A stretch of DNA of 64,000 nt from Ruditapes philippinarum. Taxonomy: Eukaryota. The notes under the pieces are model-generated. The model did no database searches. It was not told the DNA's origin and saw nothing but the letters and a program-made list of their open reading frames with translations. Location of the stretch: positions 434,001 to 498,000 of the forward strand of contig NW_026864086.1 in assembly GCF_026571515.1 (NCBI RefSeq), written 5' to 3'. Below are positions 1,468 through 61,759 of this stretch, in pieces. Both the position numbers and the translations under genes were made by a program. Position 1 is the stretch's first letter. Every line of letters begins with the position of its first letter.

Positions 1468-3097
1468 TTTCATACATAATGCACATTTACAACAGCTTGC
1501 TTATAGAAGACAAGAGCACTGCAAAGGCGGAGCAATATACGCTCAATGTAAATTTGTTTGAGTAATAGAAAAATCAAATTAGGGAATAGATCTAATCCAG
1601 AATTGTGTCTGTAAAATGTTCAATCTTTATGACACCATATGACCTTCAAAGAGGGGTATTTTTACTCTAGTTGCATGATTCATTAAATTAGGCAATGATA
1701 TATACGAAATAAAGAGGCATAGTAGTTATCCAGAAAATATAATAGGTGTTTTCCTTTACCTTAATCTATATAAAGCAAGTGACTCCATGACAGGGCCAAT
1801 TTTGAATGGAGGGTCATGATAAATATAACGTTAGTAGATATCTATAAATTGATGCTACATGTCAAATATCTATGCTTTATAGTTTCACACAATAATACTC
1901 AAGTTATTTTCCTATACACGTTTAAGTCGATATAAATCATGCTACCTAAATGCTAAACAATAGTGACAACAGGGGCACGATAAATTTCAGTTTTCAAGAT
2001 CTACACGCTAAATGTCTAAGCTCTAGGCATTGTAGTTTCACAAAATAATACTTGAATGTGTTTCCTATACAAAAATGTATTAACTTAGTGACCACCGGAG
2101 CGGAAACCAATATTCGCAAAAGGGGACATTTAAATACCAGCTATGTTGTGGTCCACAATGCGAAATTACATGCCAAATATTAAAGCTGTGGTCAGCGTAG
2201 TTTCACACAAAAAGTCTCCCTGGGGCAGGGCAAATATTGAACCAACAACCATCATTCATATCAGTTTTGTGGAGGTTAATAAAGTAATGCTCCATGCTAA
2301 ATATCTTCGCTCTAGACTTAAAAGTTTCGAACAATTAAACTAAAATGTGCGTTCTTATATAAGTCTATAAAATAAAATAATTTTTTACCTGTGTTCTGCA
2401 CATCGTCTAATTGTAAGTGATATTTCTGCCGGAAAGTTTTAATTTCTGTATTTTGGTTAAACAATACAGAGCGGACACGAAATTTCAAAATTCACACAAG
2501 ATAACTGTGACCTTGTCTTTGATCTGAGGAAGGTCAAAGCTGCGCTCTTGACATTGTCTCCATTTGATAATCGTGTCTGCCAAGTACACCAATACATGTA
2601 GTTTCAATTTCCTTCAACCGATTAAAAAGATACAGACCGGACACAAATTTGCTATCAGGTGGACGGAAGACCAGGTGTATAACAATAAAAACCGACTTAT
2701 GTTCGGGCGTATAACAATAGAAATATTGTTTGAGGAACGTGTAGAATTTCTTCGAACTACACTGTGGCAAGTTATATACTTTGTAAAGGTTATATATTGC
2801 AAACATATTTTGCGTATGAGTATAAAATATGACCATGATGCATATAAGAAAAAAACCCGTGACTACATGTCACAAAATTTTATTCTTTCTCCAACATGTG
2901 ATTATCGCGGATTTGTCTTAACTATACAAGTTATTAAAAGAGTGTTAGTCCAGCTTAAATTATGACCCTTTGGAATATAGGAAAGTACATGAATATGATT
3001 TGGACAAATTGAAAATTATAATACAACAGACAATGTAAAAATACTGTTTTAGCTATATACTGAAGAATTCTGAGACATTTAAACGGTGTCGTGTTAT

Positions 3098-3270
3098 TTA
3101 CACGGTGTCACAAGGGCTTGCACTAGCACTGCTCATAGGCACATATCTACGTTCATGCTGCACAGGTATTTCCATGTATATTTTACTTGGTGTGGTTGCC
3201 TCCCTCGACACGGTTTCACAGTCATTCGCAAAGCCATTTCGCGCACGCATATATATATGAGGGCTATCGA
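3098..3270 (-). CDS. Terminal exon: cytoplasmic tail with Tyr motifs
   Basis: ttttcag|TC acceptor is phase-1 compatible with the TM exon. Encodes FDSPHIYMRARNGFANDCETVSREATTPSKIYMEIPVQHERRYVPMSSASASPCDTV*. Confidence 0.72.
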
Positions 3271-5460
3271 CTGAAAATATACAACTGGGTATTGAAAACA
3301 AACACAATGAAGAACAAATGTGTTTATCCAATGACAAAAATCTGGGTGTCTAGGTAAAATAATAATAAAAAACATTTTTATGTAAAACTCGTGTAAAAAC
3401 AAAAAAAAAACAATGTTATTGATATAAATTGATTTGAGGTTAAATATCAGAAAAAAAATACTTCACTATACTCTAATAAGATTCAAATTTTACATTGTAA
3501 AAACCTTTAGGAACATATATCTTTACCGTCACTGATCTATAAAAATTCATTCTAGGATAATATAAAATAAGCAAAAATATAATATAATAAAATATAATAT
3601 TATATAATATAATATAATAATATAATATAATATAATTTAATGAAATGTAATGTAATGTATTGTAATATAATATAATATAATATAATAAAAATGTAATGTA
3701 ATATAATATAAGTAAGAAAAAAATATGAAATTTGTTTGTTTACATTGCTTCTTTTGCCTGCAGAGTAATACTGCAAGGACAATTCCTATAATAACAGCTA
3801 CCCCAAACAACGCACCCAGAACCTTCACCATAATCCCTTCAACATTCGTTTCCCTGTAAAAAACCCAACAGTAGATCACTTTAAGTCGCTGAAAGAATCA
3901 AAGCATTGCAAGCATTGAAGTATACAATGTATGGTTAGTAAAAAAAACTGTACTATGAGTTGATGTATGCACTGGCAATTTCTCCCATCTACAACGTAGA
4001 AGCGATTTTTTGACCCAAAATAAAAAGTACCACAGATTCTAGCTTTGGTAATGAAATGTTTTGACTATCAGGAGATTCGAAATCAATAGAGTAAAAGTTT
4101 TCATGTATCAAATCAGTTTTGCATGGATGCATAAATCTCAATGGTCATCTGTTTTATATCATATTTTTTAATATAAGTTAATGTTTTAGTTTTGAAAGTG
4201 GTATATAATTGTAAGAATGATGATTATTCAAATATTATTAATTGCGTTTTTTAACGTTTCCAAGTTAATGTTACCCATAATCACATACAATTCCACTATC
4301 CATGAGCAAAGACCGAAGACGCCGGCACGTACAAAACATTCGCTTCAATTCATTTCTACCGTGATCGTGTATATTGTTTTAAGATTATGAATAGCGGTTT
4401 ACATTGGAACAGGATTTTTTAGCAATATGAATACTTCTGAATGTCATTTTAAATTTGAAAAGAATATACTTAAGCAATTGATAGATAAATCAAATCGAAA
4501 TTTTAATGAGAATGATTACACCAACGAAAATACCGAAAGAAAACGTAATTAAACTAAGTGTAATCTTAAAATACTTTAGAAAAAAATACAATTAATAATT
4601 TAAATGATGACGATGATACAATTATTTCATGCTATCCATTGTTTGACTGTAATATATCAGATGATTATATTATGATAAACCACTTGTGAAATTTATAAAA
4701 TAAAATATAATTTTCACGGTAGCCGGACTATATCTGAATGCGGATGAAAAAAATATCATAACTCAATGGAAGCACACTTGCCACATGTAATGACCTGTTT
4801 ATTGCATATGTTCCGCAGCAATTTTTCAGACTGGAATTAAATCAAGCAATAACGTAATTGTTCTAATATATTTATTAATTGCTTGAAAATAGATATTTCA
4901 ATGTATAAAATAAATAGTTAATCCACAAAAGTGTCAGCTGGCTGTCCTTGGTGTTCGATTAGATTATCTTAATCCATCAAGCAATTCGCCAAAGATTCAA
5001 CATCCTCTCGACGACCTTTCTTTTGCGGACAACAGGTGAGTGATGACCAGGAATAGCCTTAATATGGGATGTTGGCACACTTGGCAAGTGCGCCAATATG
5101 GCTTATTTGCACACTTGCTCAAATACGGGATTTTCGCATGTCATATTCAGAAAAATGAAACGCATTTTTATTACTAATTATAGTAACATTATGCAATAAT
5201 GCCGCATAAAACATTTTGCAAGCATAATAAAACGGGCAATGTAAAAGAGCTACAATTGACAATTATACACCATTTGAATCTACAAATATTTACCTGGAAC
5301 ATGGTATTTGTTCGCATACATATTTGATTGCAATGTATTTTTTGATGTAAGGAGGGTCATGTGACCCGTATTTGAAATTTGAAATTTGGAGGAGCACATA
5401 ATATGTTAACCGTACATGTAAGATTGGTAAGTCAACATTGCATAGTTTATTTATTTATTT

Positions 5461-5498
<38 letters not shown>

Positions 5499-8400
5499 AT
5501 ACTACAGCTAGAATGTAAATTACTAAAAATGTTTCCCACAGGGAACCTTTTTAACTTTTTCAAATATTGAACGACGTTACATGATCACCCAGTTTATACG
5601 GGTTGTAAAGGAGAATTACGTTTGGTTCATCGAAAAAAACTTCCTTATTCGGGTCGAAGCTCATCTGACTTTTTTAATTTCTTTTATTCAAAAATACGTG
5701 ATCATGCCTAAAACTCGGCTTAAATATCAAACAGGAAGATAGTTAAAGTATTTATCTAAATGATCATGTGAAACTATAGGATTGAAAATTTGAATAATGT
5801 TTTTCAAGTTTGTTTTTGTTGTTTCATGAAATATATTTATAGTACAAAGATTGCTTTAAGATTTTTATTGATTTTTTTGTAACTTGACAATTAAAGGCAA
5901 CTTTCATAGTGATTCCTATAAAAGAAAACATTAATATGTGACGCCCATTATAATTCATTCATCTGCATTAAAATGAATTATCAAAAGAAAAAAAAGATCC
6001 CAAAATCGTAAACTCCAAAAAAAAAAACTTTCGCGTTACCGCATTGAAGATGAACGCTATCTGAATGTTAAATAGAGTAAGAAAAAAAAAACACTGAAAC
6101 ATACAGTCAACAAATTAATTTCCGTATTATTTGACACACTACTATCATTATTTCCGTGTTATAAATTTGATAATTTAAATAGAAAAAAAAATAAAAATTA
6201 CTTTATTTAAATGCAATGTATGCGTATCCAGTTTTATTAATGCATTTAAACTATGTATTAGGCATATTGAATGATTATTTAGGATGAAATCTTAATACCT
6301 ATTTGGGTTCTTCAAAGTAATAAAACAAAGCCCTACCACATTATTAAATGGACAATTATTGTGTAATATGCTCATGGACATTTTTATTTAACTTCATAAA
6401 TGTCCCGGAAACGGACACGTCAAAATAATGAGGTAATTATGAAATAATATTATTTGATAATCGTTATGCTTATAGTTTTAAATAGAACTGTCGATAATTG
6501 AATGAAAATAGTTTTAACTAACAATAAAATTTCATGAATATATGATTTAATGTATAACTTGTATAAATGTACAGCCTTTGAATTTCACAATTTTATATCA
6601 TATTCTTGCAAGTCTCGAATCAAGATATTATATAAATTATTTTTAATTCGTTTTCAATAACGAGGACATTTTTTCCTTTGGCGGAACAAAACGTCAAAAG
6701 AACTAAATTAGGAATAAACAAGATACATTATATACTAGTCACTATTTGTAAAGAAGAAAAAACACGTGAACAGCTGACAGCGTTTTTTACTGAAGCACGG
6801 TACGTCTTTCAGCCTTCTGTAAGGCTTAAGCTCTTTGCTTTTTCGTCACACCATCAACTGAGAATGACGCGTAAATTATCATTTATAAAATAGCAATAAA
6901 ACTTTGAATACATACCCATCTTTTGAGTCTTTGTCAATAATGTCTGTGTCCTTTGATACCGCATAACAATTACTACATGCTTGTTTATTAGGACATCTTG
7001 AAACAATTGACACATCATTCGGATAGCTTATCTTGCTTGCCTCAAACGTAAAAGTGCCTTCCAATGGATACCTTCCAACCTGTTGTTCAACGAAATCATA
7101 AGTTGACTTGAAAAAATTGCTTTTTACCGTTCCAATAAATTTTTTGATAGGTAAAATGTCTTTCTTAGTCCAATTTGAGTAAAAGTCGTTTAAACACTTA
7201 ATTTTGGGTCATTTTGCAAAATAAAATTTATTATTCAGGAAAAAAATGTATTAGCAAACAATGTGAAAGTTTAAAAAAAATATTGTTCAAATATGGACAA
7301 ATCTGGAAAAAATCCTATTCCGTCATGTCAAAAACAAATTAATATCCAACAAAGAAATCTCAATATAAAGCTTTAAAAAGTAGGCATGGCGATGGAATAC
7401 TTACTTCCTTATAAAGAAGCATTGATAGGTCGTCGTCATCTTTTTGTATGTTGTAGATTCTGTAACCTACATTTCCATCACCGTTTTTGTCAAAAACTTT
7501 CATCTTGTTCCCTGATCCATCCAAGTCCATCTTAATATTCAATATTTCATTAACAAGCCCTGTTAAAATGAAATAATGAACACTGTTTTGAACATCTTAT
7601 ATATAAACTTTCTACGCAAATGACCTTCTAGACATTATTAACACTGATTTTAAAGGTATTTTTACAGTTAACGAACTCATGATTTTTGCACACGACCAAG
7701 TACTTTTGGCTAAACCCCCTTGAATCTCTTCAGGCAATGTTAACGGATATTGAAACTTATTGTAATACATGGGGTTTGAAAATAAAAACGTCTAAAACAA
7801 AACCAATGATTTTTGAAAAAGGACAGGTATACTCAGCATACTTTTCATATTTATAGCACACCAATTGAACTTGTAAAATCATTTAAATAACTTGGAATTA
7901 CTCTTTTTAAAAATGGCAATTGGTTTAGAACCCAAAACAGAATAGCTCAACATGCCTCATTTGCTTTACATAACCTGTTTAAAGTATTAACATAGAACTA
8001 CCAATTTATCAGAAATGTAAATTATTTGATTCTCTAGTCGGTCCATTTTGAATTCAAAATCGGAGATATGGGGAATGCACGATGCTAAAGATATAGAATT
8101 AATACATAGTGAATTTTTGCGGAGAGTCTTAGGGGTCAAACAATTAACTAATTTGTCAGCGCTTTATGGTGAGCTTGGTCGTTATCCGTTACATATTACT
8201 AGAAAACATAACATGATAAGATATTGGTAAAAAAATCTTAAACTTAATCATTCATCACTCGTAAAGCAAGCGTATTTACTTCTCAAGTCAGATACAGATG
8301 TTAGTCGACATTTTAACGGAGAAAATGGACTTCTTTTATAAAAGACATCTTGTCAATTCTTGGCTTTTCACATATTTGGGACAATCAGTTTGATATAGAT

Positions 8401-11400
8401 ATACCATATGATACTATTAAACAAAGATTAATTGACACTTTTCTACAAACTTGGTAAGTATCTATCAATAATTCACCAAAATTACAAATATACTTCATAT
8501 TTAAACATTCTTTTGAAATGGAAAAGTATTTAGATTATGTCCAAGACAGTAAATATATAACAGCTTTAACTAGATTTCGAACTTCCTCCCATAATTTATT
8601 TACAGAAACTGGTAGATATGAAAACACTCATAGAGAACAGCGAATATGTAAATCATGCAATATGAAGAGAGTGAATACCACTTTCTCCTTGAATTTCCCA
8701 ACTACCAAGATCTTCGAACATATATTTTAAACCGTACTATTTCCATTGACTATTGCCATCATGAACTTGTTAGTCTCTTGTCGTCAGACCCAAAGAAAAC
8801 TAAAGGTGCCTTAGCTAAATTTTTGTATTGGGCAAATCATAAACGTATCTCTTAATCTGCTATTTTTTCTGTCAGACTATATTAATGAAAATAAGTATAG
8901 TTCCTATAATAACTTGTATTCTTCAGAAAACTGTGTATTGTTAACTGTTTTTTTTTTCTGTACATGTCTGTACATGGGTATCATTGTTATTTGGCTATAA
9001 GCAATGTATTTTGTTTCATGCGTAATAAAATTCGTATTCGTATATAAAAACTTCTCGCATTTATTTTATTATACATTTACTTACCATGCCTGCAAAAAAA
9101 CGAAACATATACAGTTGTATATTTATCTGTGTATATGTAACTTCATATGCAATTAATTACAGTGCTCGAATGTATGTTGAGTGTTGTCAAAAGTCAATAT
9201 TATTATGATAATTGAAATGTATTTTGTATATGTTCACAGCCCCTACACTCTTAATTGATATTTTGTAATGTATTGTTTATGTGTTGGTCGGTAGCCGTAA
9301 ATAACACAATAAAGAGTTGAATCGAATATGATTTTTATCTATTTACTAATTTGTAATAAATAAATGAAATAAACTTTATTTTTTAATGATTTAATGTACT
9401 AGTATCTAGACTAAACAAATGCAATTATGGCAGTGAACTATTAAAAACGTCCTGTCTGGTTTTAAAACATTGTTAACCTAGATTCCTACAAGGCGAATGG
9501 CCCCGATAAGATTAAGCCAATTATTCTTAAAACAACAATGGCATCTGAATACCTTTTTTACAAGACATGCACAATTTGATGTGTTTCATAAAGTATAAAT
9601 TAATAAAGTAAGAAGAAAACTTTTGTATTAAGACCACACATTATCATATAAGTTCAGCTTATTATGTCAAATGCTTTGGGTTTTGTCTAAATGTCTTGAA
9701 AAGACTAAACAGTAAAAGCAAAGATATTATTTAAATGTTAACTCTCCAACTCTTGAACAACGTGGTAGCCAGTATCTTAAATGTTCATTCTCTTAACGAC
9801 AATAGAAGAATTAGGTAACAAGTCTGCATTTGTCTAACAAATGTTCGCATCGATAAACACTACATTCGATGAAACTTAGAAGTTACGTTAAGGAGGCATT
9901 TTGAAACTTTTTTCCAAAGGTGTATGCTGAAATGGTTTTCGGTAGGTCCAATGACGCCTTGGATTTAATAAACAAGGTAATTTGGACAGTCTGTTGATAA
10001 CTATGATCGGGAGATCTGACAATTACCAGCCGAAAAATGTACTAACATTATTCAAAGAACGATTTAGTATTCATTCATTTTTTATGCTAAAAGTGTGTGA
10101 CCCATCCATGTATTTAACTTTTGAATCGATCGCATCTTTACTTTTCATTGTATTGGTATAAATAAGTCCCCAGTCAATGTCACCGCTACCGTAATTGAAA
10201 ATATACAGTATACTACTAGTATTATATATGTATGGGTGTTTACTTATGTTATGACTTTTGATATTTTAGCTTGTATACAATATATGAAAGCGAATATTCT
10301 TATGCAATATGCATGTTAAGTGTTTTAGTATGGTTTTAAGAGATGCTTTCTTACCTTTTGTGTTATCCTTGAAATCTTTGCAAAGGTTTTTTGCGTGCGA
10401 ACCACATTTTGATTTTAGAAATTCATTTGCACCTGCCAGGAGACTCTTTGCTGCGACGTAAGCTTGTGTATCGTATGTATCTAGTTTGAAGTTTGGATCC
10501 TGACTGTAGTCATTAGAGTCATTGCATTGCTCGACATGTGTTTTGTCAAAACTGAGATCAAAATAGCACTTCCTCTCGGCTTGAACAAACAGCATAGCCC
10601 ATGGATCTTCGATGTAAGTCTTAGATTTTATGTTCTGGGCGTGGTTTCGAAGTTCTCGGTCTTTGTACATTTCGAGTGAAACGGTGAAAGAACCCAAAAG
10701 AATTTGGTTTTTGTCACTAGCTAATACGGTTGTATCACGTGCCCATGCTTCAGATCCTATGAAAACGAAATCCCCTCGCTTCATTTGTGTAGTGAAAGCA
10801 GACATGATCTTAATAAGATGATCTGGGTACAAGAAAACTACAACTATCTTTGCTTGAGCGTATGTTCTTAGTTTGTCATAGATTTGAAACTCGCTATCGC
10901 CCTCGTTAAAGGAAATGTTCTGAATAACACAAATCTTGTTAGAAGCTGCGAATTCTTTGACTTTATCTCGACCGGCTTCACCATAATCGCCAGCACTATG
11001 AATGATTTGTATGTAATCTGCATTCAACTTCTTCATCATTTCTACCATGGCTTTTGCTTGAGCATCATCCGGTGTAACTACACGCATGAAGTACGGGAAT
11101 TTAGACCTGTCACTCAATGCCGGGCTTGTTGACGCGTAGCTTATCTGTACAAACTTCAGAAACGACAATGTTGAAGCTACAGCCATGCTAACAGTGCTTG
11201 TGTATTCGGCAACATAACCTAGAATTTTATCATCGACCTTCACAACTGTGTTGTTGTCAATCGAAACTCCATTAGCATGTAGATCGTATATTTTCCTTTG
11301 GACAACAGCTGGATTCCTACATGAATTGATGATGATTGAGCCCACTTTAAGCTCAGGATAGAAGTTCGAATAATCACCACTTTTCTTGTTTACTTTTTCT

Positions 11401-14400
11401 ACGGCAAACCTTATAGATTCAGCGAGTTGGTATCCGCTATTGTCTGATATTGCACCACACTCTTGCGTACCGCTCGTATGAAAAATGGGAACTACACCAA
11501 CTAAATATACGTCGCCTGGCTCAAATAAAACACGTTCTTGTAATTCTAATAAGGGCGTGCATTCAGAGCATTTCTGACCAGGTGAACACTGGGCTCTGCG
11601 AACGTCTGGCCACAGTAACTCTTCACCAGATGCACGGTAATCACGGATTTTATTCAAGTCCACTTTAACTTCATTGCCAATCATTTTACCTATCTAAATA
11701 ACAGGAAAATGACATTTTATACACGGCATACTCTGTACAGTATCAGGGGCAGGTAACAGAGAATATATACGTCACTAACCCAAACTATGATAATAACTAG
11801 AATAGAAAATGCAAACAAGAAATCATTAACTCTTCTGTCAGCAAATTCTCACAATTCCCTGATTATATTTACATTTCCTATAAGCATAAAACATTCTACA
11901 ATATATACACATTGTATTCAACAATTTAGAGCTAAAAGCAAAAGCAAAAAAGAAAAGTCTATATTAGTGCCTGTCAAAATAATCCCCTAGATTTCGGAAC
12001 ATTTAAAAAAGACTACGCCTCCTGAGTTAATAGATATACCGGAGCATAAATTGTTCAGTCGAGATGAAAATAACATGTCGTGTATAAAATAAACAGTTTG
12101 ATCAAATACAAATTAGAACAGTGTTATAGAAAAGGGAAGAATTCGTGAACATAAACATTAAAACGATTTATATTAAACCATTTTATTTTAATAGTTGATT
12201 CAATTGCATTTCAGTAAAGATATAAATCGTTCGAGCTAACTCAAACACTATAAGCAGAGAGTTTAAGAAACAGGAACATAAATTTTCTTTTAGGTAACCC
12301 TTGTATCTGTTTATTTCAATAATCAATTTTAATTGCATTTCGTGATGTATTCAATATTTTACCGACCGTGAAAACACATCCATAAAGATAAAATGTTCGC
12401 GTTTGAAAAGATACAAAAAATGTGACATTCCTTACCATGCTTCATATCTTAAATAGACTTATTCATCTTTCATTCTTGATTAAACCACAGAACATTTGAG
12501 GGAAAGTTTCAAAATTTGTGTTAAGTGTATAGCGAACTATGCACACGATAATTAGGCGACACTGGTGTGTCAGCTGATCTTGGTCAGCACGTTATCGCAC
12601 GGGTAGAATATGTTGCCGCCAACAGGGTAAAGGTTAATATGTTATTATCACATTGGTTATGCCAAATGCTGAGAAAATGAAAGATCAATTAAAGCTTATA
12701 TAAAAGTATACTATTAGACCTTTCCTCAAAACTGTTTTAAAAATATTACCTTTTCGAATTTGATTTCATTCGAACTCTCTGAAGACTGGATATTAAATAG
12801 CTCATACGATGATTTGCCGTCCTTTTGCGTGACTGTCCCTGATTGGTCAAATTCCAAACTTTCGTCTTGTAGGGAATCAGGTCTTAATAGAGACGTTACC
12901 TTGTTTAATATTACGCTACCATTTTTACAGAACACAATTTATATTAATTATTGTAAAAGAAATTGCATGTTTGAAATTCAATTAGATGTAACAGTTAAAA
13001 AGCATTTAATAAATGTAAACGCATTTGCATTATACGATGATATTAACAGAAATAAAATAAAAAGCAACAAAATAGAAATTTCTTACGTCCAGGAGAAGTC
13101 GTTTTGGAAGTCGATTTGGAGTCCGGAAATAGCGTCGATCATATCTCCCTGCTTAAATGATTCAACAAATCCTGTACATGAACCCGTTTTTGTCTGGCAA
13201 TATTCCGTCCGGAGTTTCGTCACGGCTTTGATCATAGTATGTACAGCTTTTATAGCGTAACTTATTTGCAATGGCTGCGCGTGAAATGATTTTATTTCAT
13301 TCAGTAAAAAGAGGAAAAAAATTTTTACGTGAATGCACAACCAAGGACCTTTTGTAGAGGACATAAAATAGCCATTGGTTCGATTTAATTCTTTATCAAA
13401 AAAAAAAACTGTTGGGTAAAAACCCCGGTTAGTGCCGAGGGTTTGGGAAAAAATTTTAATAGGGGCGAAAGAACCGAACCCCTTTGATTTTAAATCATTT
13501 TCCCGTTATCCCCGTTTAAATAACGGATGTCCAAACTGCGTCTTCGAAACATAATGATTGACGGGGCGAGTATGAGACTTACCTAATGACGTAAGAAAAA
13601 ATTTTGCAAACGTAATTTTGAAGGTTTTAAAACACAAATTCCGTTAATAGGAGGTTGGAATTAGGAACCCCAATGAGAATTCCTTAAGGGTATTTTCGAA
13701 ATTTCGTTTACTTATGCCTTTTTGATCGCCCCGTCCTATTTAACGCTTAAAAAACTTGTTCTTAGTGTACAAAAGTTGTGTATCCTCTGACCATTTTTTT
13801 TTTCAATAAAACTGCAACCCTTTTCCCCTTTAAAACTTTTCCAGGGTTTTTACCATCATTTTAATAAGAAAAAAAAATTAAAAACTTTATTTTCATATCT
13901 TACGATACAAAAAACTTATATCTCTATCTCCACAGTTGTCTATAAACTAAAAAATTTTTAAAAACAACTTTTAAAAAATTAAACCCCATAGTTTTTTTTC
14001 CACTCAAATATAAGTTTTTTTTTGTAATTTAAAAAAATTATGTGGGCAAAATTTATAAAGTATTGACTGGTTACAGAAAATAGATTGTTAAAAAATTTTT
14101 TGTGCTTATTCCGCTTTTTAAAAGTGCTGACCCTTCTAGGTCTTTGTTTCAGCATATTTAATATTAAAAGATGATACGTTTAAGGTGAAAGGGCTGAAAG
14201 ATTTCATTTTTACATTTTTTCTCTGAACGACCAACATAAACCGAGTACTTTTTTGTTTTTTTTCTTTGCTTCTGGGGTTTTTGTCCTTTAAAGACGATAA
14301 TAGGAACCTATTGACCCTAATTTTCTTAATTAGGATAATTATGGGATAAATAGGAATCAATTTTTTTAGGAAATTACGTTATGGGAAAAACACTTTAATT

Positions 14401-17400: not shown

Positions 17401-20400
17401 TTTAAATTTACTCGAGGAATCTCAGAGTTATTGAGCCTCCTTTTTTTTAAAATTCAGCTATGAATGTTTACAAAATTAAATTTAAAAATAAGGTATTGGT
17501 TAATTAATGTTTAGAAAAAATTTTTCAAATTCTTTTTCATTTTTTTTTTATTTTAACTTGTCTTTGTAATGAAATTAAATTTTTAATAAAAAGTAATGTT
17601 TGTTAAGACGGGTTAAATGCATTGTTACAGTTATGACAGACGTTATTTTCGAATACGTATTTTTGGAAAAATCTTTTTGAAATGAAAAATAAACGAGATG
17701 AATGGATATTAAAAGAAATGGAAAAATAAAAACAAAATTTTAATTTACTTTACCCTTTTCGAAAAATTAAAAAATTGAATTTTTTCCCGGGTTTTGGTTT
17801 TTCAACTTTAAAAAAATATCTATTGTTATTCTTTATTTTTTTTTTTTTATAGATAAAAATTTTTAAAATAGGTTAAAATTTAAAAAAAGTCATTCAAAAA
17901 TCTAAAAAAGGGGTTTTTGTTGTTGCTTAACGAAAATGCTTATTCCTATTTTACAAATAATTATAAATGAACATCAACCAAAAAAAATATAGTCATTGAT
18001 TGTTCAACCCAACTTTGTTTTCTTGCTGATTTTAATTGGTCGTAAAAAAAATCAATTTATATTTATGTTTACTTCTGTATATACATACATCAAGAAAAAC
18101 GGGTGATTTAAGTTTGGGGAAATTAAAAGAAAGGTGGAATTTAACTAAATTTGGGTTCCTTTCACAGGCGTGAAAATTTTTTAATTCTAAAAATGTATCT
18201 ACTACGCACAAAAATATCTATACGCACAAAAAATCTAAATTTTACGCACAATAAATCTATTACACGCACAATAAAACTTCTACCACAAAAAAACATTCAG
18301 CAAAAAACCTTACCCTTTAAAAAGCAAATTCTATTATCCCAAAAAAATTTTATTTCTACCACAATCCCTTTTAAGCACAATAAACCATTTACACGCCTAA
18401 ACCCACCCATCCAAAAAACCTATTTTAAAAAACATTTTTTATAAATCAGTAAAAAAATATATCAAAATTAGATCAGCACCCAGTAGAAAAGCTTTTACAA
18501 AATTTAAAAAAACCAAAATTAAAAAAATAAACGCTAGAAATAAATGTCCTGTAATTTCCCCAATGGGAAACCCCGCCTTATAGTGTAAAAACCAAACAAA
18601 ACGAATTAACGAAAGACCCTTCAAAATAAAATTATATTTTTTAAAAAAAAGTTAAAAATTTTTAATGATTTTCTTCTTGTACTAATTTTATATTTGAACA
18701 AACCCGAAACGAGCTTTTTATCTGGATCAATCGTGCAAAATTTTGTATTTTAAAAACATTGCCCAGTCTCGTGCCGTTGTTGAAAACCTATCTGAAGCTC
18801 GTTTTTGTTTTTTGGTAGGCACCTAAAAATTTGGGAAAAAAGCCCCGGCCCCCCAGAGCTTTTTTTTGGCCCAGAACGCCCGAATAAAAAAAAACTAAAA
18901 AAATTTTGTGAGGAACCTAATTAATCAAATAATGTTAAAGTTAAGGCTTACAAGCAAAAAAAGCAGTATAACGTGTTTTTTGAACTTTTCGCGTTATAAC
19001 GCCTTTATTCGCGTTATTTCGCCATTGGTTTCGCGTTATTACGCCTTGATTCGTGTTACTTCGCCTTTTGCTTCTCGTAATAATGCCTCTTGATTCGCGT
19101 TATAATGCTTTTCCAATAGTTTATTTCATTTCATTTGATACAATATTAGCAAGGCTTTAATAAATCTGACTTTGTCTCTTTAGGCTTGTTAATAACATAA
19201 TTGTAACATGGTTTACGTAATATTTTATTTCTGAATAGTTGGAGTGTGTGAAGCTTGAATTACTTTTCATAACACAAAATTTGCCATACAAGAAAATTTC
19301 ACAGAACTTAAAAATCGGTCGTCTCTTCAAATCTACTCATTTGTTAACCCCTTTAACCTGGTTATAATTCTCGATATATTACATCGGAAATGTGTGGTTT
19401 ATATCACGCAAACTACAAATACATTGGATATTTTGACGTTACATGGTGGCTAATACAACACTAATACTAGGCTACCTTAATAAAATAAGAAAGGCAAGAT
19501 AAACATTCAAAATGGCCGCGCCAGAATCGTCTATTCAACTGCATATATATAGTTTGTCCTTGCTAAATGCTGATGTGGAAGGTAATTATTCAGTGATACG
19601 TGATTTACATGTACAGTTATAAGGGAAATTATCTCACATATTGTGGACATGTATTTGGTTAATCTCCTACCTATAACTGTTCCATTGCTTGAATCCCTGT
19701 TCAGAATTTCAACAGCTTTCTCAGCGGCTATATCGTCTACCTGGCATGTTTCAAATGATTCTAAACCTGCAAAAAGAAAAATGTTGTTTGTTTTGTTTTA
19801 AAAACCAATATAATGAGGTTTTTATGTTATTTTTTTTTTATGCCGTACCAAAACCTAAACGATTGCTTCAGATAGGATTTTCAACAACGGCAACGAGACT
19901 GGGCAATGCTTTAGAATACAACAACTTTGCACGAGTGTAGTAGTAAAGAAGAGAAAAGATCAATATGAACTATGTAAATAACTTTAAACACGCCATTACG
20001 AACTACCTTTTAATTATGTATCGTCTTATTTTAAACAGGCATATAAATTATATTAGGGTGGTAAGTATACTATTCCGTAATTAAGACAGGTCATTTTCAT
20101 CATCTAGATCTATTTTACAATATAATTTGTCCTTATAATTGTGTGGGTTTTTTTTTGACAAATTAGGAATAAAAAGATAAAGAGAAATAGTTTATTTCGG
20201 TAACCCACTAGTATATATTTACAGTATCGGCAGGTGGAACAAACCTAGTGCTATACCTTTTGATGATAGGAAATGTAAAAATTGTTTTATTTTGGAAGAT
20301 GAATTTCACTTTATTTTAGAATGTTCCCTATATAATGAATTACGAAAAAAATATATAAAAAAACACTTTTGGGAAAGACCAAATATACCTAAATTTGTTA

Positions 20401-21914
20401 CATTGATGAATTCAGAAAATGAAATAGAAATTAGAAACTTATCAATGTATATATTTAAAGCTTTCGATGTTCGAAACACTATTCTTTATAGTTAATCAAA
20501 AGTTTGTCCCAAACGCTGTATAACTGTATCTTACATAAACTTTTTACGTTTTGTTTTGTGATTTACTTCCTTATTAATAGGATGGTATCTTTCCTTAGTA
20601 TTTATTTACCAGTTTATGAATTGAGACATGTTGATAGTATATTATATCTGTAGTTTACGTTTTCTGATTGCTAAAAATACTGTGTAACTTAATGATATAT
20701 GTTTTATAAAGTGTGACATTGACCATTTGATTGTATTGTATGCTTTGTTATATGTACTGTGTATGCATGGACATATTGTCCAAATGTACTTTGAAATAAA
20801 CTTGAAACTTGAAACTTGTTACATACAATGATTGACGAATTAAGTTGATGTGTAAGTGTTGAACCTCACACAATAACATTAAAGTGACATTACATTCACA
20901 TTTATTCGCTGTTAAGTTCAGTTGAATTAGTGATATATTTCAAAAGATTGACCATCATAATGGTAATTGACCAATAATTGATGATGAAAAATGTTTATGA
21001 TACCAAATAAAACGACCTGAATTATAAAAAAGACTACCCCGCTCGTTTAAAGAATTGAACGTTACCAATATATTCTTTAAGGTATTTATAGAAATTTCTT
21101 TCCATTGGTCACATAAATTATTGATTATATACAGTAAAATATAAAGTTGAATACAATTGTGGCAAAATGTCAAGTTGTTTTGATCTTTTAAGGTTCATTC
21201 ACAAATTACACTTGGATGGGCGTAATGTCACTTTAAAAGAATTGCTATGAAGTTTGATTCACAGTGCATACAACGAGATACAACGCACATACACAAAGAG
21301 AACGCTTAAAATTACTTAATTAAAGTGACATTATGCCCATCTAAAGGTATATAGTGAGTGAACAGGTGAGAGTCAAAAAAATATTCATTTTGCCCTAATT
21401 CCTTTTGATTTAATTCTTTACTTCGCATAAACAATAAATAACCACCGGATTTAAACGAAATTTCAGTAAATATCATTTAGAATTTACCTTAACCTTCAAT
21501 TTATAAAAAGACTGGGCAGTCTTTTATATTTTAGGCAGATTTTTAATTTTATCCTATATAATCTGTTGGCCAAACATCATTTAAACAGTCAATCTTTTGA
21601 AATATAATGTCAAATTCAGCTCAACTTGACAATGAAAATATGAGCATAATGTCACTTTAAATGAAACATAACTTACCTATATTAATAGGCAAATTTCCCA
21701 CCTCATTCAGTTTTTCAATATACCATTTTACAGCTTCAACAGTCATTACCGAATCAATATCAACGTCCGTGCTACAAGTTTGTCCGCTACGTTCAAATAC
21801 TCCAAACAGACCGGCCACCATAATGTCTCCTTGTACATTGATATATCCGTAACAACCACCATATAAAAATGTTAAAACAATTAAAGCCCCTACAATATGG
21901 GTAAATTGTTTCAT
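3098..21914 (-). CDS. Multi-exon type I membrane receptor: signal peptide + two tandem mGluR/class C GPCR-type Venus flytrap (ANF_receptor) domains + single TM + short Tyr-motif tail (roughly 1100-1200 aa)
   Basis: Phase-compatible GT-AG exons: 21914-21677 (MKQFTHIVGAL...GDIMVAGLFGV), 19766-19671 (GLESFETCQ...GTVI), ~18880-18700 (corrupted; GVLG..QIGFSTT..FAR), one or more corrupted exons in ~14330-13087 (ends YAIKAVHTMIKAV...DFSW), 12882-12750, 11693-10355 ([57 protein letters not shown]), 7559-7405 (FDKNGDGNVGYRIYNIQ), 7079-6916, 3853-3744 (TM), 3270-3098 (stop TAA). AATAAA lies on the minus strand at 2879-2884. Confidence 0.8.
3578..3710. repeat. (ATAAT/GTAAT)n pentanucleotide microsatellite
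   Basis: Direct reading of the sequence. Confidence 0.9.
3744..3853 (-). CDS. Transmembrane exon of the double-VFT receptor
   Basis: tttacag|G...CAAT|gtaaac. Encodes ETNVEGIMVKVLGALFGVAVIIGIVLAVLLCRQKKQ (hydrophobic helix plus basic stop-transfer). Phase 2 matches the upstream donor at 6916. Confidence 0.82.
5447..5497. repeat. (TTTA)n microsatellite
   Basis: Direct reading of the sequence. Confidence 0.9.
7625..9042 (+). mobile_element. 5'-truncated, decayed non-LTR retrotransposon (LINE; RTE-X/CR1-like RT C-terminal half), antisense within a receptor intron
   Basis: Frameshifted remnants: FA(H)DQ in place of the RT FADD motif, WGLKI, YGELGRYPL, RFRTSSHNLFTETGRY...RICKSC..ESEYHFLL. Ends in AATAAA + (TTCGTA)n tail at ~9024-9042. 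Confidence 0.85.
10355..11693 (-). CDS. Large exon encoding most of the second Venus flytrap domain
   Basis: Corresponds to ORF 10266-11684, with acceptor tttag|ATA at 11693 and donor AAAG|gtaag at 10355. Classic mGluR VFT motifs are present. Confidence 0.92.
13270..18960. other. Low-accuracy (homopolymer-inflated) assembly segment
   Basis: Abrupt excess of long A/T/G/C runs. The exon at 18728-18821 differs from its clean inverted copy at 19841-19937 mostly by run-length errors and small indels. Repeat copies here are similarly corrupted. Confidence 0.8.
15380..16940. repeat. Array of GC-rich palindromic MITE-like repeats in direct and inverted orientation
   Basis: Recurrent motifs CATATTT.CGGTT.GG..GGAATATCCC, GGCGGTAAC...GTTACCGCC and AAAACGCGTTAAAA at ~15380, ~15975, ~16410 and ~16860. 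Confidence 0.6.
18960..19110. repeat. Short tandem repeat with a TTCGCGTTAT(A/T)(A/T)CGCC core (~21-bp period)
   Basis: About six degenerate copies are visible. Confidence 0.7.
19841..19937 (+). pseudogene. Inverted duplicate of a ~97-bp fragment of receptor exon 3, lying in intron 1
   Basis: The plus strand encodes AVPKPKRLLQIGFSTTATRLGNALEYNNFARV (a VFT motif). Its reverse complement aligns to 18728-18821. Confidence 0.85.
20222..20818 (+). mobile_element. LINE 3' fragment (RTE-X/CR1-like C-terminal zinc motif, 3' UTR and tail)
   Basis: IGRWNKP...RKCKNCFILEDEFHFILECSLYNELRKKYIK. Ends in AATAAA(CTTGAAA)n at 20796-20818. Confidence 0.82.
20879..21236. mobile_element. TTAA-flanked MITE (Kolobok-like, AG...CT termini), copy 1
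   Basis: TTAA|AGTGACATTAC ... GTAATGTCACT|TTAA. Confidence 0.72.
21320..21660. mobile_element. TTAA-flanked MITE (Kolobok-like), copy 2, inverted relative to copy 1
   Basis: TTAA|AGTGACATTATGC ... GCATAATGTCACT|TTAA. The internal ATATTTCAAAAGATTGAC is shared with copy 1 in opposite orientation. Confidence 0.72.
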
Positions 21915-24145: not shown

Positions 24146-27100
24146 TTATTTCTGATTGTTGTTAGTATACCATCTCCACGCATCTGTACCTGAAAGAAAA
24201 AATGTTTTATCCATTATCTACTAATTAATTGAATTGTGATTCACTATTGATAAATATTACATGCCTGTGTATAGCTTGATATAAAACTACATTAATAAAG
24301 ATGAATTTTAGTAAAACAATCATAAAAAAGGCAACGCAAATGGACATTTAACATCTTTTTATCAACTTACAGACATCTGTTATATTCAAGCCAACGTTCC
24401 ATTCAAGTTCCTTCCTGGCCAATGAAATGTCTGCATATGACGTGGGCGTGTCATATGATCGAGGTTCCTTAAATGCGATTGGAATCTACAGTAAACAAAT
24501 AAAATAAATAAAGGAAATACTCGTATCTGTAGATATAAAGGATTAATCACTCAGTCTCAGCGTTTTTCCCTTAAATAAGTGTTTAGAATATCAAATTTTA
24601 GATAGGCTTAACCTGTTATTTAAATCAATTTTCTATTCAGATCTATTTAAGCTAATGCATGTAAAGCACTGTACGCCCAACGTGTAAACAGTTCAAGTGT
24701 AAATTATCTCTACCCTGAAAGAAATATCGAACCGAGAGAACTCTTTGAAGTTGATATAATTTAATTCCATTATTATTTTCTATATTATAAAGATCACTCA
24801 CTGTTTTTCCTGATGCTTTTTCAAATTCTCTCACCATGTTGAGAGCTGAGCATGGACTTCCAGTCCCCAAGTTAAACACCTGTTGTATGATATAGTTTAT
24901 AATGATTCCGACATTGAATAGAAAAGTTAAAATGATCTTTATTATATCATTTACAGAAATTTGGTAAAAATTAAAAAAAATAAATAAAATATATTTTGAA
25001 AAGTTAAAAACTAAACTTAATAAAGTTAATAAAGTTTCAGTAACACTAAAATGATACAATAACTTTTCCATCAGACCTTCTTATAAAATGTTTAACCGGT
25101 ATTATGTATAAAACATCAATTAAAGGTGTGTTCAGTCGAGCATATTTTATCTTACATTTGTATAATGTATCTACGAAACATCAATTGCATGAATTCCATT
25201 GTTTATGAATTATTTCTAATATAATGATGTTTGTTATACATACAATTTTTAAATGTAAAATAACCATTTTTTCGAAGTTTTAAACTTGTAAACACAGTGT
25301 GAATACATATTGTCATGTTTGACACAGGCAGTTTCTTAAGAAAAGACAAAATTCCACAGTAATAGGGAATGCAGCTTCTCAAACAAAACAAGATCACATT
25401 ATACATATTCATTAACGTTAGGAACTTCTTAAATTATTTTTTATAGAATTCTACAAAACATGTATTTTACCCAAAGATGGGCATGGTGTATCTTTTCATT
25501 TTCCCGCCGCGTCTTGATTTGCGTAAAATTTTATAGAACTTCCCTTTTGTTACTGTACAAACCTTATAACCGTTTATAGCTTCTATCTTTTTTAGTGCTG
25601 CAATATGTCCTTTTGCAATATCAACAACGTGCGTATAATCCCTCTCACCTGAATATATACGTCAATTTGTGAGTTAAGATTATTTCAGAAGATGGCAAAA
25701 ATGTATCTGTGAATTCTACCAACTACAATTTACACTTTTAATTCAATTCACAAACATGCATAAGGGTGTCAATTTAGTTTCATATACATCCTGTTATAAA
25801 ATATGGTAAAAATAAATTTTCATACTATATCGTAAAACAATTTATTACATGACAGCGCTTGATTTCCATTACATGTAAAATCATAAAAATAATAAAGATA
25901 ATTAAGCATTTCTTTATTTAACAAATGTATAGTAAATCTTGATCTTTTTGCCTTTATATTTCGCAAGGAAAACTGCATAAAAGCACGCATAACAAGATAA
26001 TTTTCTTAAATTTCACAAATGTTTTATGTATGTGATAAAAAGTAGCACATTCGTTGCCATATAATAATTATTAAACTTTATTTTAACTCGAAGAAACCTA
26101 CATTTTCTTAAACTTGTTTTGATAAAAATTTTGTTACATAGGATATTATTTAAGGTCTTATCTTGTACCTGTTCCATCTATTGTTTTGTATTTATCACCA
26201 TATATAATGAAATGATCTTGCTTTCCTAGTGCAGTCTTTGCGATATTCGGCATGAGGTTTGGTGGATTGTCTGTCATGATTTCTCCAATAAGCCCGGACT
26301 TGTGCGCGCCAACTGGGTTAAACAATCGTAGGGTAATAATACTCCAATCCTGAAAAATATACACTAAGATTAAAGAATAATATATATATATATTCACACA
26401 CCACCGTAACTTCATGGCATCGTGTTTTCTTTTAAAGCTTTGTTTTTAAAAGGAGCTTCACTGAGGTCAAAAAGCCTTAAAACTTAAAAATAGATAAATG
26501 AAACACTTGTAAAGGACAAATCTGCAAAGGAGAAAAGCTGGCAAAGGATGAGAAAGAAATACACTAAGAATTTAATTGAATATCGATTTATTTTGCGCGA
26601 TTCCTAGACTTATTTGAGTTACCTTTTTGTGTTCTTTAGCACAATGAAAATAATGACGGTGACGGGAATATCTGAAAATTTGCACACAAGTTATTTGTAT
26701 AGACCTACATCAAAAGGTAAACAAATCTCGGAACTCGTATATCCAGTCTCGCCATTCCAAAAAAGTGAAGTCCTTTAAGTAGTACAATGAGTTGTCAATT
26801 AAATCCAAAATTCTAACCTCTTCAGCTATACATAAATCCTTCAAGACTTCCTCACAAAAATATTTTGTTCTACTGTATGGGTCGTTAACATCTCCAGCCG
26901 TATGCTGCTCATCAATTGGCAAATGATTTGGATGGCCGTAAACTGCTACGGAACTGGCATATATCATTCTATACACACCGTGGTTCTTCATTACCTGCAA
27001 GCTCAAACATGTTGACGGTATCATGACCAGATCTTAAAGGTAAAATTTCTATTCAAATGTGTACATTTTTTCAGTAATTTTGTTTTTAATCTTTGCTTAA

Positions 27101-29452
27101 AATGGCGAGCAAGTATACATTAATGTGTCTGGAAAGCTAAAACACCATTTCTTTTTCGAAGAAATATTGAATCAGCCTAAAGTTGTTAGTAGCTGCATAA
27201 TTGTGAATTAGGCATAAACCTAGCTGCTGGTAATCAGCGGATTCAGCATCAAAATATATACAATTAAATGAACACTGACATGTATGTATCATAGAAAATC
27301 CATATCTATCATACATAGTTCTTCATATAGTAGCGAAAAAGCGTTACCCTTTATTGTGAACATTGTTTTAATATTACAGACGCTACAATTTTATTGTACA
27401 CACAGTGATATTGCTAGCATGTTGTGTGTCAGCTTCTTGGATTGTCAATTTCGATTGAAAGACATGAAAAGCTATTATTCATGTACGTTACCTTACAACT
27501 ACAACACTGTATGGTATGGGAGCGCATCGGTGACAAAAATAAATGCATGTCATTCGCGTAAGAAATCATTTATAAAAACAAACAAAAATAATATTGTTAC
27601 AATGCTTTGATGGCTATTAATAAAAATAATTGGAAAAGATCCGTTTAATTTCTATTATATTTTCATCTTAAATGTATGGCATGCAATTCAAGTGGTGTTT
27701 AAAAGATAAAAGGTGGCGAAATGGAAATATGTAAACGATACATCTACGTTATCAGTGGCGCAAATTATGACGTTTGATTTGTTACTCATTACCTCTAAAA
27801 GTGTTACCAGCCCGACAACGTTGTTCTTGTAATAGTTCAAAGGAGACTGAATTGACAACTTATGTGACTTCTTAGCTGCCAGATGTATCACACAAGATAC
27901 ATTATTCTGAAACAGAGTAAAGATGTTTAATTCGATTCTTTCACACATAAACATTTGATTGGCATTCCTTACGTATAGGTTAAAGTTTATTAGTTCGTAT
28001 TTACAAAAATAAATTGGTCAGGCGCGGCGTACTATTAAACTTTAACCTATACTTAGTTACAGCTAGAAAACCCTTTAAAACATGTCGCGTGCTCCAGATG
28101 GCGACATTCCGTTGCCTTCTATAAATGAATTACTGTTTATGATTACGTCATTTTGCCCTTATGAATGAACATGAAAATTTATACGCTACTATACGAATAA
28201 ATGTTCAATAAAAATATAAGCTTTGGATATATTTCTAAGAATAAAATCTATCTCTAATTTCAAAAAAAGAACCAAGAGCTTCGTTAACGCCGTAAATAGT
28301 TACCTTTTTAGAAGCGTTACAACATTATCATTGACAAGATTATTTGAAAGCAATCGTGGGTCTTTGCAAAGTGAAACGAAATGGGTTAAAAAAAGTCCAT
28401 ACCGAATCGAAATACATATGAACAGTTATTAAGTAATATTTTCTTTTGCTTTCTCTCGTCGTAACCAATGCAATACATTGTTTTACCTTTTTGGCATGGA
28501 GGAATGCCACATGGGTAGTAGTGTATGGACGTTCTTTATATAAATGGAACCTCGAGTAATTTATTTCAACCTTTTATATATCATAAAACAAAAGATATTA
28601 TGTGGTACCTACCCAAAACAGGACTAACTGTAATTACCTCTTGAAAGATAAGATTTAGACTTTCCTTATCCGTAATGTCTACATTGTGAGCTTGAACTGG
28701 TTTTCCAGTAATAACCTCTACTTGTTTTAACGCCTCTACAAATAACAGTTAAATATATAATTCATAGAAAGTGCTTTTGCCCATTGAGTCAATCTTTTTA
28801 ATAGCTACTTTGTATTTGTATTGCATTTACTCTTAATATACTAATCGTATTGAAATATAATTATCGTATATATGTGTAAATATGTTAAAGTCTGGTCTCG
28901 TCTAGAATGATTCTGCAATGAAGACACTCATTATCGGTTCATATTGGTAAGATACGAGTATGTAAGTATACTAAGTTTATCGCATATTTGCTTTTTTTAC
29001 GACTCATTTTAATTGAAATTTGATGTCCGAATGTATTTTAATATTTAGTTTTGTTTTTTGTTGTTTTTTTGTGAAACATATGGTATTATAAGTGAGAAAC
29101 GTAGAAATGGTTTATTTGTTTTTAATATTCAATGTATGAAACGTTATTGTAATTTTATAAGAACATTGTTTGTCGAGTAAACAATACTAATATTTCATTT
29201 CAAATCATTAACAGTGTGCAAACGATCAACAGAAGTGTGAGCTATTTTGATATGAGACCTATTTAAAATGTCCAATGAAATTGCTTCTGTACCTCAATAC
29301 AAGTAAGGGTTCACTTGAAATTTACCAATTTTAGAGTTGTCCAATCTATCGATGACTATCACGTGATAACCTTCTTTTAGTAATTCTACAACCACGTGAC
29401 TACCGACATATCCAGCACCCCCTGTTACAACTATATGATTTTTAGCTGACAT
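24146..29452 (-). CDS. GALE: UDP-glucose/UDP-GlcNAc 4-epimerase-like protein (divergent GALE homologue), 9 coding exons
   Basis: Exons 29452-29326 ([19 protein letters not shown]), 28735-28638, 27906-27793, 26994-26818 (ASSVAVYG; YSRTK catalytic YxxxK), 26349-26169 ([10 protein letters not shown]...NLMP...DGTG), 25648-25563 ([14 protein letters not shown]), 24879-24802 (VFNLGTG), 24485-24371, 24189-24146 (CTDAWRW...*). All junctions are GT-AG and phase-consistent. A probable 5' UTR exon has its donor at 29935. Confidence 0.93.
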
Positions 29453-44551: not shown

Positions 44552-45698
44552 GATGATTACCGGATCGATAATTGGAACTTTGATGTATGTGCTTGTGAAA
44601 CATATAATATCTCAAGTTTCATACAATGATATTGGTTTAAGACCCAAACTGATGGACGATATTTTTGTTAGAAAACGTCAACTTCAGAGCGGTCATCCAA
44701 TTACAGAAAATAATACAGCTAAACATGAAGTTCGTCATATAGCATTTGTAAAGGTTCATAGAACAGGGAGCGCAACGCTTAAACAAATATTTCTTAAGTT
44801 TGGACACATCAGAAATCTGACGTTTGTGTTACCAAACCTCCGGTACACACACACAAGAGGGGTTATCAGTGAAGTGGAATCTTTAACAAACAAAAATATT
44901 CTGCCACCGCCAAAATCGCAGCCTTATGACATATTGTGTCATCACGTGATATATAATAGAAACTTTTTCAAAGCAATTTTCCCAAAAGATACTGTTTATA
45001 TTGGCGCCGTAAGAGATCCTATTTCTCGATTCCAGTCAGCTATATACTTCTTTGAACCTAAGTACATACTTCAACTCCAAGGATTAAAACCATTATCAAC
45101 ATATTCCAGAAACCCTCTTCTCTATGAACCAACCGATCCAAGGAACTCAATGACCAATAACAGAATGGCAGTGGATTTTGGGTTCCCCATACACCTGTTT
45201 CCCGATCATTTAAGAAATACATCCGTCAATGAGATAAATGAATATATAAAGCAATTGGATACCGATTTCCAGCTTATTGTTGTAAATGAGCTCTTTGATG
45301 AATCACTTGTCTTGATGAAAAGATTACTTAACTGGAGCATCGGAGATATTCTTTATCTACGGAAACATGTAACAATTACAACGTCTAGACGAAATACTTT
45401 ATCCGAAACAGATATTTTGAATATTAAAGATTTTCTTTACTTAGATTACGCGTTATATAATTTTGCTGTGAGTCGAATAAAAAGACAAATCAGGGAAGAA
45501 GGTGACACTTTCAAAAAGGAGGTGGCATTTTTCAAGAATGTAAATACAATGTTTGAAGACTATTGTAGTGATTTAAAGCAACAAGTCAGTCCTCGTTATT
45601 TTCCAGGTACAGACTCAAACAGGGAATTTGAATTCTCACATATTGATTGCCTGCTTTTGAAAATGAAACTATTAAACTCAGAAAAAAATAGTAATTAA
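44552..45698 (+). CDS. Galactose-3-O-sulfotransferase (GAL3ST/cerebroside sulfotransferase family)
   Basis: ORF 44433-45698 has an N-terminal hydrophobic anchor (MITGSIIGTLMYVLV), HIAFVKVHRTGSATLKQIF, YDILCHHVIYN, VRDPISRFQSAIYFF, TNNRMAVDFGF, ELFDESLVLMKRLLNW and LDYALY. The 5' start is uncertain; candidate acceptors lie at ~44496 and ~44545. Confidence 0.9.
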
Positions 45699-61675: not shown

Positions 61676-61759
61676 AAAATGGAAATTAAATTTAACTTCA
61701 CCTGACATTTAGATCAAATTCATATTAACTGAAACTTTAAAAAAAAAAAAGTGAACAAA

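Follow-up and report, generated by a model that had tools for sequence, protein, structure and literature searches.

A Ruditapes philippinarum receptor with two Venus flytraps, one membrane helix and a conserved tyrosine pair in its tail as a candidate amino-acid sensor

A gene in a 64,000-nucleotide stretch of Ruditapes philippinarum DNA (the window, meaning the whole stretch analysed) encodes a receptor made of two mGluR-type Venus-flytrap domains (VFT1 and VFT2), one membrane helix and a 62-residue disordered cytoplasmic tail. Its defining features set this receptor apart from class C GPCRs, VKRs and NPRs alike. The tail likely links the predicted sensing of an amino acid to growth signalling, independently of G proteins. 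Its tyrosine pair, YMEI-x7-YVPM, sits in a block on which purifying selection is shown to act, as judged from an alignment of four genes. Our preferred account of the pair, held tentatively and at clearly less than an even chance, is that a separate kinase would phosphorylate it after the predicted binding of an amino acid, whereupon the SH2 of p85 would dock.

The gene runs on the minus strand from an ATG at 21914 down to 3098. Among 27 long relatives its closest is Mercenaria LOC128549591 (P0003, 1119 aa; 73%) and its second closest the Logan protein P0004 (67%). P0003 maps along the window exons, save for residues about 113-130 and 163-236. The features of the gene, in the direction of transcription, are the following:

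21677-21914, minus strand: exon 1, predicted, with start codon, signal-peptide-like N-terminus and the start of VFT1 (54% to P0003 residues 1-84)
19671-19766, minus strand: exon 2 (VFT1), predicted (70% to P0003; splice consensus)
13087-13680, minus strand: VFT1 exon or exons, frameshifted in error-rich assembly (tblastn pieces in several frames; homopolymer excess)
12750-12882, minus strand: exon with the VFT1 end (54% to P0003; a loose contig end of runs X1 and X2 maps to its 3' end; 5' border from splice consensus)
10355-11693, minus strand: large exon with the linker and most of VFT2, including the amino-acid pocket (Pfam ANF_receptor, E 2.7e-38; 73% to P0003)
7405-7559, minus strand: VFT2 exon (contig joints; 75% to P0003)
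6916-7079, minus strand: exon with the VFT2 end and a short Cys linker (contig joints; 72% to P0003)
3744-3853, minus strand: exon of the one transmembrane helix, with RQKKQ as a basic stop-transfer (contig joints; helix at 1042-1071 in the orthologue model)
3098-3270, minus strand: last coding exon, carrying the disordered tail and the stop codon (splice 3744 to 3270 in X1 and X2; orthologue model pLDDT <50 over residues 1068-1119)
3242-3253, minus strand: YMRA, a decayed form of the Y[LI]xP that the family has next to the membrane (20 near relatives: Y[LI]xP in 16, Y[LI]xA in 3, none in 1)
3182-3193, minus strand: TPSK, invariant in 4 of 4 genes
3167-3178, minus strand: YMEI, the proximal Tyr, 11 residues ahead of YVPM (Y, E, I and the next P kept in 4 of 4 genes; aligned with FxxIP of P0006-P0008)
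3134-3145, minus strand: YVPM, the distal Tyr of the pair, YxxM of p85 type (RYV kept in 4 of 4 genes, the +3 Met in 3 of 4)
3101-3109, minus strand: C-terminal DTV, without counterpart in the other 3 clade genes
2864-3097, minus strand: 3' UTR, with AATAAA at 2884-2879 and a poly(A) site near 2864 (X2 contig)

Positions 3268-3101 of the minus strand encode DSPHIYMRA...KIYMEIPVQHERRYVPMSSASASPCDTV and are followed by the stop TAA at 3100-3098, the leading F of the tail arising from the splice codon. The three tyrosines that the sequence-only reading had placed in this tail are there as written, with their codons at 3253-3251 (YMRA), 3178-3176 (YMEI) and 3145-3143 (YVPM). The tail exon is spliced to the hydrophobic exon at 3853-3744 through a GT donor (3743) and an AG acceptor (3271), and this joint is exact in contigs of runs X1 and X2, which stem from two studies and are two of the four runs compared. 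A contig of run X3 has the same joint with different letters in the junction codon, and the raw reads of run X24 cover the tail exon at a depth below 1, with none of the listed joints among them. Three further upstream joints are likewise in the X1 and X2 contigs, and the X2 contig ends in poly(A) 15 bases past the AATAAA. Spliced and polyadenylated contigs indicate an mRNA origin, although the RNA type of runs X1-X3 was guessed and no run with the gene is recorded as RNA. Across exon and UTR, X1 and X2 differ from the window at 3 positions each, the sole coding difference being at 3157, outside the motifs. The five 3' exons, from 11692 to 3098, join in a single open frame of 645 residues. The segment 3098-3270 is the last coding exon and lies within the mRNA, in the frame read by the splice, which settles the point on which the earlier reading had said it could fail, namely an exon outside the mRNA. 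The plus-strand frames and remaining minus-strand frames of the exon are excluded by the observed splice phase. A genome search for a second copy of the tail gave one match, the tail itself.

The 5' half of the gene is less well preserved in the assembly. Homopolymer runs number 17 per kb between window positions 13001 and 19000 and 3.9 per kb outside them, and the interval is a poorly polished, error-rich stretch that breaks the VFT1 exons, which is probably why the exact gene has no database protein. Intron 1 contains an inverted, clean copy of part of exon 3 at 19835-19937 (plus strand), which would be either an assembly artefact or a local inverted duplication; a copy in the same orientation at 18728-18829 (minus strand) is 84% alike and error-ridden. 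Elsewhere in the window are a 24-bp tandem array (241-1467, about 1.6 kb past the 3' UTR), exons of an NAD-dependent epimerase that we take to be GALE-like (26710-28017, minus strand), Sulfotransfer_2 and Gal-3-O-sulfotransferase frames (32213-33316, minus strand, and 44403-45698, plus strand), a single-exon RING/B-box TRIM-like gene of 649 aa (54313-56262, plus strand) and retroelement frames with RVT_1 in the second (61733-63968, plus strand).

The AlphaFold2 model of P0003, built on a 21-row alignment (mean pLDDT 82, pTM 0.60), predicts that both flytraps are folded and that a single helix spans 1042-1071; its tail has pLDDT <50. The class C-type flytrap is present: in addition to the ANF_receptor match, mGluR ectodomains are the best matches of P0003 in sequence and in fold, with mGluR3 the best in the PDB. 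The seven-helix module is absent, as the mRNA shows one helix and then a stop; none of 27 genome-wide 7tm_3 matches lies on the gene's 552-kb contig, and the 30 kb downstream of the gene hold no flytrap or 7TM match. The independence from G proteins that had been proposed therefore stands as architecture. P0003 and P0004 have no Pfam match to the nine-cysteine domain NCD3G, Pfam scans of the window exons and of relatives found no kinase domain, and the tail alone gave no PDB match at E 10.

Among known systems, VKRs are similar in being invertebrate receptors with a class C-type flytrap, a single helix and a proposed PI3K/Akt output. Further, the receptor keeps the Ser165 equivalent and has Tyr at the Lys409 equivalent, as VKRs are reported to do (PMC4026697). 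It differs in having two flytraps instead of one and in lacking the insulin-receptor-like tyrosine kinase domain, so that another kinase is needed; by analogy, it would work as a VKR with the kinase in trans. The mGluRs and multi-flytrap class C GPCRs (for example Tubulanus XP_074641006.1 and Saccoglossus XP_002735016.2) share flytrap sequence and fold, but the receptor is without 7tm_3, Pfam NCD3G and the Arg78 and Lys409 equivalents and has one helix and a tyrosine tail. NPR-C has a similar outline of flytrap-fold ectodomain, one helix and a short enzyme-less tail; the receptor departs from it in its mGluR-type small-molecule pocket, tandem domains and SH2-type tyrosine motifs, and no NPR is among the 60 PDB sequence matches listed. 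The ITAM receptors CgIgR (oyster) and Draper (Drosophila) and the p85 site of PDGFR-beta resemble it in a tyrosine pair 11-12 residues apart in a disordered tail, but they have Ig or EGF ectodomains where it has flytraps, and the receptor falls outside the strict ITAM, has a single YxxM and has no kinase of its own. The sensor kinases BvgS and EvgS also set tandem flytraps ahead of a membrane helix, but these are bacterial histidine kinases and the analogy is one of outline alone.

Pocket positions are given in mGluR1 numbers, by what we assume to be a valid transfer from mGluR3 motifs. VFT2 of the window gene has S, T, D, Y and E at the equivalents of Ser165, Thr188, Asp208, Tyr236 and Asp318, with Leu at that of Arg78 and Tyr at that of Lys409, and the glutamate-specific residues are thus replaced (roles of the pocket residues from PMC4026697 and PMC6307864). 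Across the 81 VFT2 units of the single-pass family these places are well kept (S in 74, T/S in 76, D in 67, Y in 80, E/D in 75), the Tyr236 equivalent far more so than in 7TM units (31 of 58). Tyr at the Lys409 place is found in 4 of the 81, exactly the clade of the window gene, and pocket and tail thus changed together. In VFT1, T, D and Y are kept in all 11 relatives examined. The best reading of these residues is a predicted amino-acid sensor whose pocket is without the glutamate-specific residues.

The conservation of the tail was assessed in a clade of four genes, namely the window gene, P0003, Mercenaria P0181 (the full-length protein that clusters with fragment P0030) and P0004, which form one clade with support of 1.0 (FastTree) and 100 (IQ-TREE). 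No more than three lineages are represented, two of the genes being paralogues within Mercenaria. Further orthologue tails were sought among proteins of shorter or similar length, which yielded P0030 alone. The orthologues are intact, at 1119-1130 aa. Common to all four last exons is TPSKIY[MF]EIP-x5/6-RYV[PR][MI]; its TPSK fits a proline-directed (CDK-type) Thr site. Within the block at positions 26-43, 12 of 18 positions are invariant. The other exon positions reach 3 of 38 (Fisher p 1e-5), and the folded VFT2 of the same clade 274 of 482, proportionally below the motif block. Both tyrosines are present in 4 of 4 genes, so the alignment that the sequence-only reading had called for bears out its expectation for YMEI and YVPM. 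The first site is YxEI in all four and YxxM in none; the second is YxxM in three (YVPM, YVPM, YVRM), and P0004 has YFEI-x8-YVPI, with Ile at +3 and a Tyr spacing of 12 residues. At the juxtamembrane site, where the window gene has YMRA, P0181 is without Tyr. The DTV end had been read as a class III PDZ ligand, and this claim is lost: the other three genes end in SQSPL, SVDNK (RVDNK in full-length P0181) and DYPKY, and in the wider clade a terminal V, I or L is found in 1 of 6 representatives. The sister paralogues P0007, P0008, P0009, P0013 and P0014 end in IQTTDT or TTQTSDM, ends that we take to resemble a dynein light chain LC8 or PDZ ligand. From 32 pattern matches, a scan of metagenomes yielded 2 loci, short stop-bounded frames with no receptor context, and these were set aside as chance.

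Taken singly, the tail motifs are modestly above chance, and the case rests on conservation. When the 62-residue tail is shuffled 20,000 times, YxxM arises in 13.6% of the shuffles, Y[VMLIE]xM in 3.0%, a class III PDZ end in 1.4%, a PDZ end of any class in 6.0% and two YxxPhi in 8.5%. The tandem pattern Yxx[LIM]-x6-8-Yxx[LIM] arises in 0.2%, a figure to be read with the pattern's having been picked after the sequence was viewed. Neither Tyr of the pair has an acidic residue directly ahead of it.

The receptor belongs to a wider single-pass family. A profile search covered 1.84 billion representatives, and hydrophobicity gives one membrane pass to 68 of its best 150 matches, the set analysed, several passes to 23 and no helix to 58, with 1 too short to class. 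Pfam scans took in 22 plus 6 proteins, 21 of them single-pass: all 16 full-length single-pass relatives scanned have two ANF_receptor stretches and are without kinase, cyclase or 7tm_3, and the multi-pass relatives scanned carry 7tm_3. The single-pass members that have names belong to bivalves, gastropods, Lingula (a brachiopod) and Dimorphilus (an annelid), and the named ones with 7TM to Tubulanus, Saccoglossus and Branchiostoma. The single-pass VFT2 units fall in one clade both in FastTree (81 of 81; 0.97) and in a 53-row IQ-TREE (28 of 28; 95). VFT1 groups with unit 1 of the five-flytrap GPCRs and VFT2 near their units 2-4, with weaker support for the sister placement to the latter (0.95 and 83). 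We infer the direction of change, since the root is one distant sequence and the trees are without VKR. Five other contigs of the genome have VFT2 matches of 37-53% without 7tm_3, and some of these may be haplotypes. In a separate region (C8247:97-168 kb; loci L008-L011, L018, L023 and L025) are several flytrap exons and three 7tm_3 matches, a cluster that is, by its domain content, one of predicted multi-flytrap class C GPCR genes. The family sequences are already public but mislabelled, as a matching 105-member cluster in the ESM Atlas carries an automatic mGluR name. No description of the family was found in a search of the open-access literature; nearest in topic there are VKRs and bacterial and trypanosome tandem-flytrap sensors.

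The family tails have a default of their own. Of the 68 tails, 9 were left out as incomplete or as falling beyond the clade; the remaining 59 contain 45 copies of Y[LI]xP in 35 tails, against 3.5 +/- 1.8 in shuffled tails (about 13-fold; reached in 0 of 500 shuffles). The control motifs F[LI]xP (3 vs 2.2) and H[LI]xP (9 vs 4.1 expected; reached in 13 of 500) stay far closer to expectation, which points to Tyr-specific selection on Y[LI]xP across the family. The motif is in all 9 subclades examined, whose tails are related and hence not independent samples. Proteins that carry it include XP_053382572.1 and a product of Ruditapes LOC132757490. YxxM is not enriched (6 vs 8.0 expected), nor are YxxPhi (96 vs 91, 68 tails), the ITAM-like tandem pattern (1 vs 0.5) or YxN, YxxQ, NPxY and YxxV. 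The family default appears, from this enrichment, to be Y[LI]xP of Crk/Nck/PLCgamma type, YxxP sites being ligands of these three (PMC13435814). The small clade probably let Y[LI]xP decay and gained the distal pair, as a rewired family member. A terminal V, I or L is found in 30 of the 59 tails (8.3 expected), such ends lying mostly in long-tailed subclades; long-tailed members, for example P0119-P0129 and P0145-P0180, have 250-750 residues in the tail and ISRV or E-x-[MI]I at its terminus, and to judge by these ends they are likely a PDZ-binding subfamily.

For the window gene itself, docking of p85 is the account that we prefer. Ligand binding would close the flytraps, a predicted receptor dimer would then shift its helices, a cytoplasmic kinase, a separate protein, would phosphorylate the tail tyrosines, and a two-SH2 protein, p85 being favoured, would bind the phosphorylated tail. 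YVPM is the sequence at PDGFR-beta Tyr751. The genome has a p85 gene, with N-SH2 and iSH2 on contig C8485. We favour p85 because Met dominates at +3, because YxxM binds the SH2 of PI3K (PMC13435814) and because the spacing of 11 residues is that of the p85 sites Tyr740 and Tyr751 of PDGFR-beta (PMC2192656). Amino acids act through PI3K/Akt/S6K in VKRs, according to PMC4026697. Contrary to this account are YVPI with its wider spacing in P0004, the lack of YxxM at the first site in all four genes and its lack of enrichment in the family. Likewise, the first Tyr corresponds to the Phe of FxxIP in the sister paralogues P0006-P0008, which fits a role independent of phosphorylation.

It is unlikely that the pair is instead an ITAM-like tandem site for Syk/Shark, or an SHP2 tandem site, in an immunoreceptor-like small-molecule sensor. 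The spacing YxxI-x7/8-Yxx[I/M] is found in 4 of 4 genes and the tandem pattern, chosen post hoc, is rare in shuffles; P0004 fits the consensus Yxx[I/L]x6-9Yxx[L/I] as given in PMC9546547, and oyster CgIgR uses an ITAM to recruit CgSyk (PMC6994640 and PMC13344425). However, P0004 is the only one of the four to fit the strict consensus, the second motif of the window gene ending in Met. Further, the D/E-x-x-Y prefix (PMC6994640) is missing, with Ser at that place in 4 of 4 genes, the pattern is unenriched in the family, and Syk was not found in the genome among the 9 of 51 SH2 matches that were translated, the two compared with the PDB being p85 and STAT.

We also give little credence to the view that the motifs are unphosphorylated YxxPhi signals for AP-complex mu, serving NPR-C-like scavenging or clearance or control of surface level. 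YMEI and YVP[MI] are both YxxPhi, with the Ile/Met swap at +3 tolerated, and the Phe of the sister paralogues sits at the homologous place. As predicted sorting signals they lie at tail positions 37 (YMEI) and 48 (YVPM) from the helix, the former inside the usual 10-40 (PMC4584282), and NPR-C is alike in outline (Atlas rank 3, score 0.93). Against this, sorting leaves the 12 invariant residues and the fixed Tyr spacing unexplained, and the family tails are enriched in Y[LI]xP, not in YxxPhi. Y[LI]xP is a poor mu ligand.

Less probable again is that the receptor uses its flytraps to pair with a related multi-flytrap class C GPCR, as an accessory subunit or a decoy, leaving the output to G proteins and the tail as a scaffold. 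Class C receptors dimerise via their flytraps, the family is kin to multi-flytrap 7TM receptors, and the genome has such genes, flytraps and 7tm_3 occurring together on C8247, C7218, C9571 and C2577. However, the strong Tyr-motif selection across the 9 subclades points to an output of the tail's own, and the pocket is better kept in single-pass VFT2 than in 7TM units. A chance or neutral origin of the motifs, in a gene left over from a truncated GPCR, is very improbable and largely refuted, for although YxxM alone is common in shuffles and the N-terminal half is broken in the assembly, transcripts from two studies are spliced and polyadenylated, the orthologues are intact, the motif block is conserved beyond the folded domain and the breaks are confined to the error-rich stretch.

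To our knowledge, animal class C flytraps signal via 7TM, cyclase or a fused kinase. It is possible, if somewhat doubtful, that lophotrochozoans have an undescribed receptor family whose double flytrap, of class C GPCR type, gave up the 7TM G-protein module and acquired one helix with a phosphotyrosine tail. Without a kinase of their own, its members would sense amino acids or chemicals and signal in the manner of cytokine and immune receptors, by default through Y[LI]xP (Crk/Nck/PLCgamma), and the changed pocket and tail of the venerid clade would wire a new ligand to PI3K/TOR. If this is true, a widespread family without 7TM, cyclase or kinase, but with selection on its tyrosine motifs, would represent a further route from the sensing of small molecules to cell signalling. 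Such a family would also be a candidate extracellular amino-acid input into growth control in farmed bivalves.
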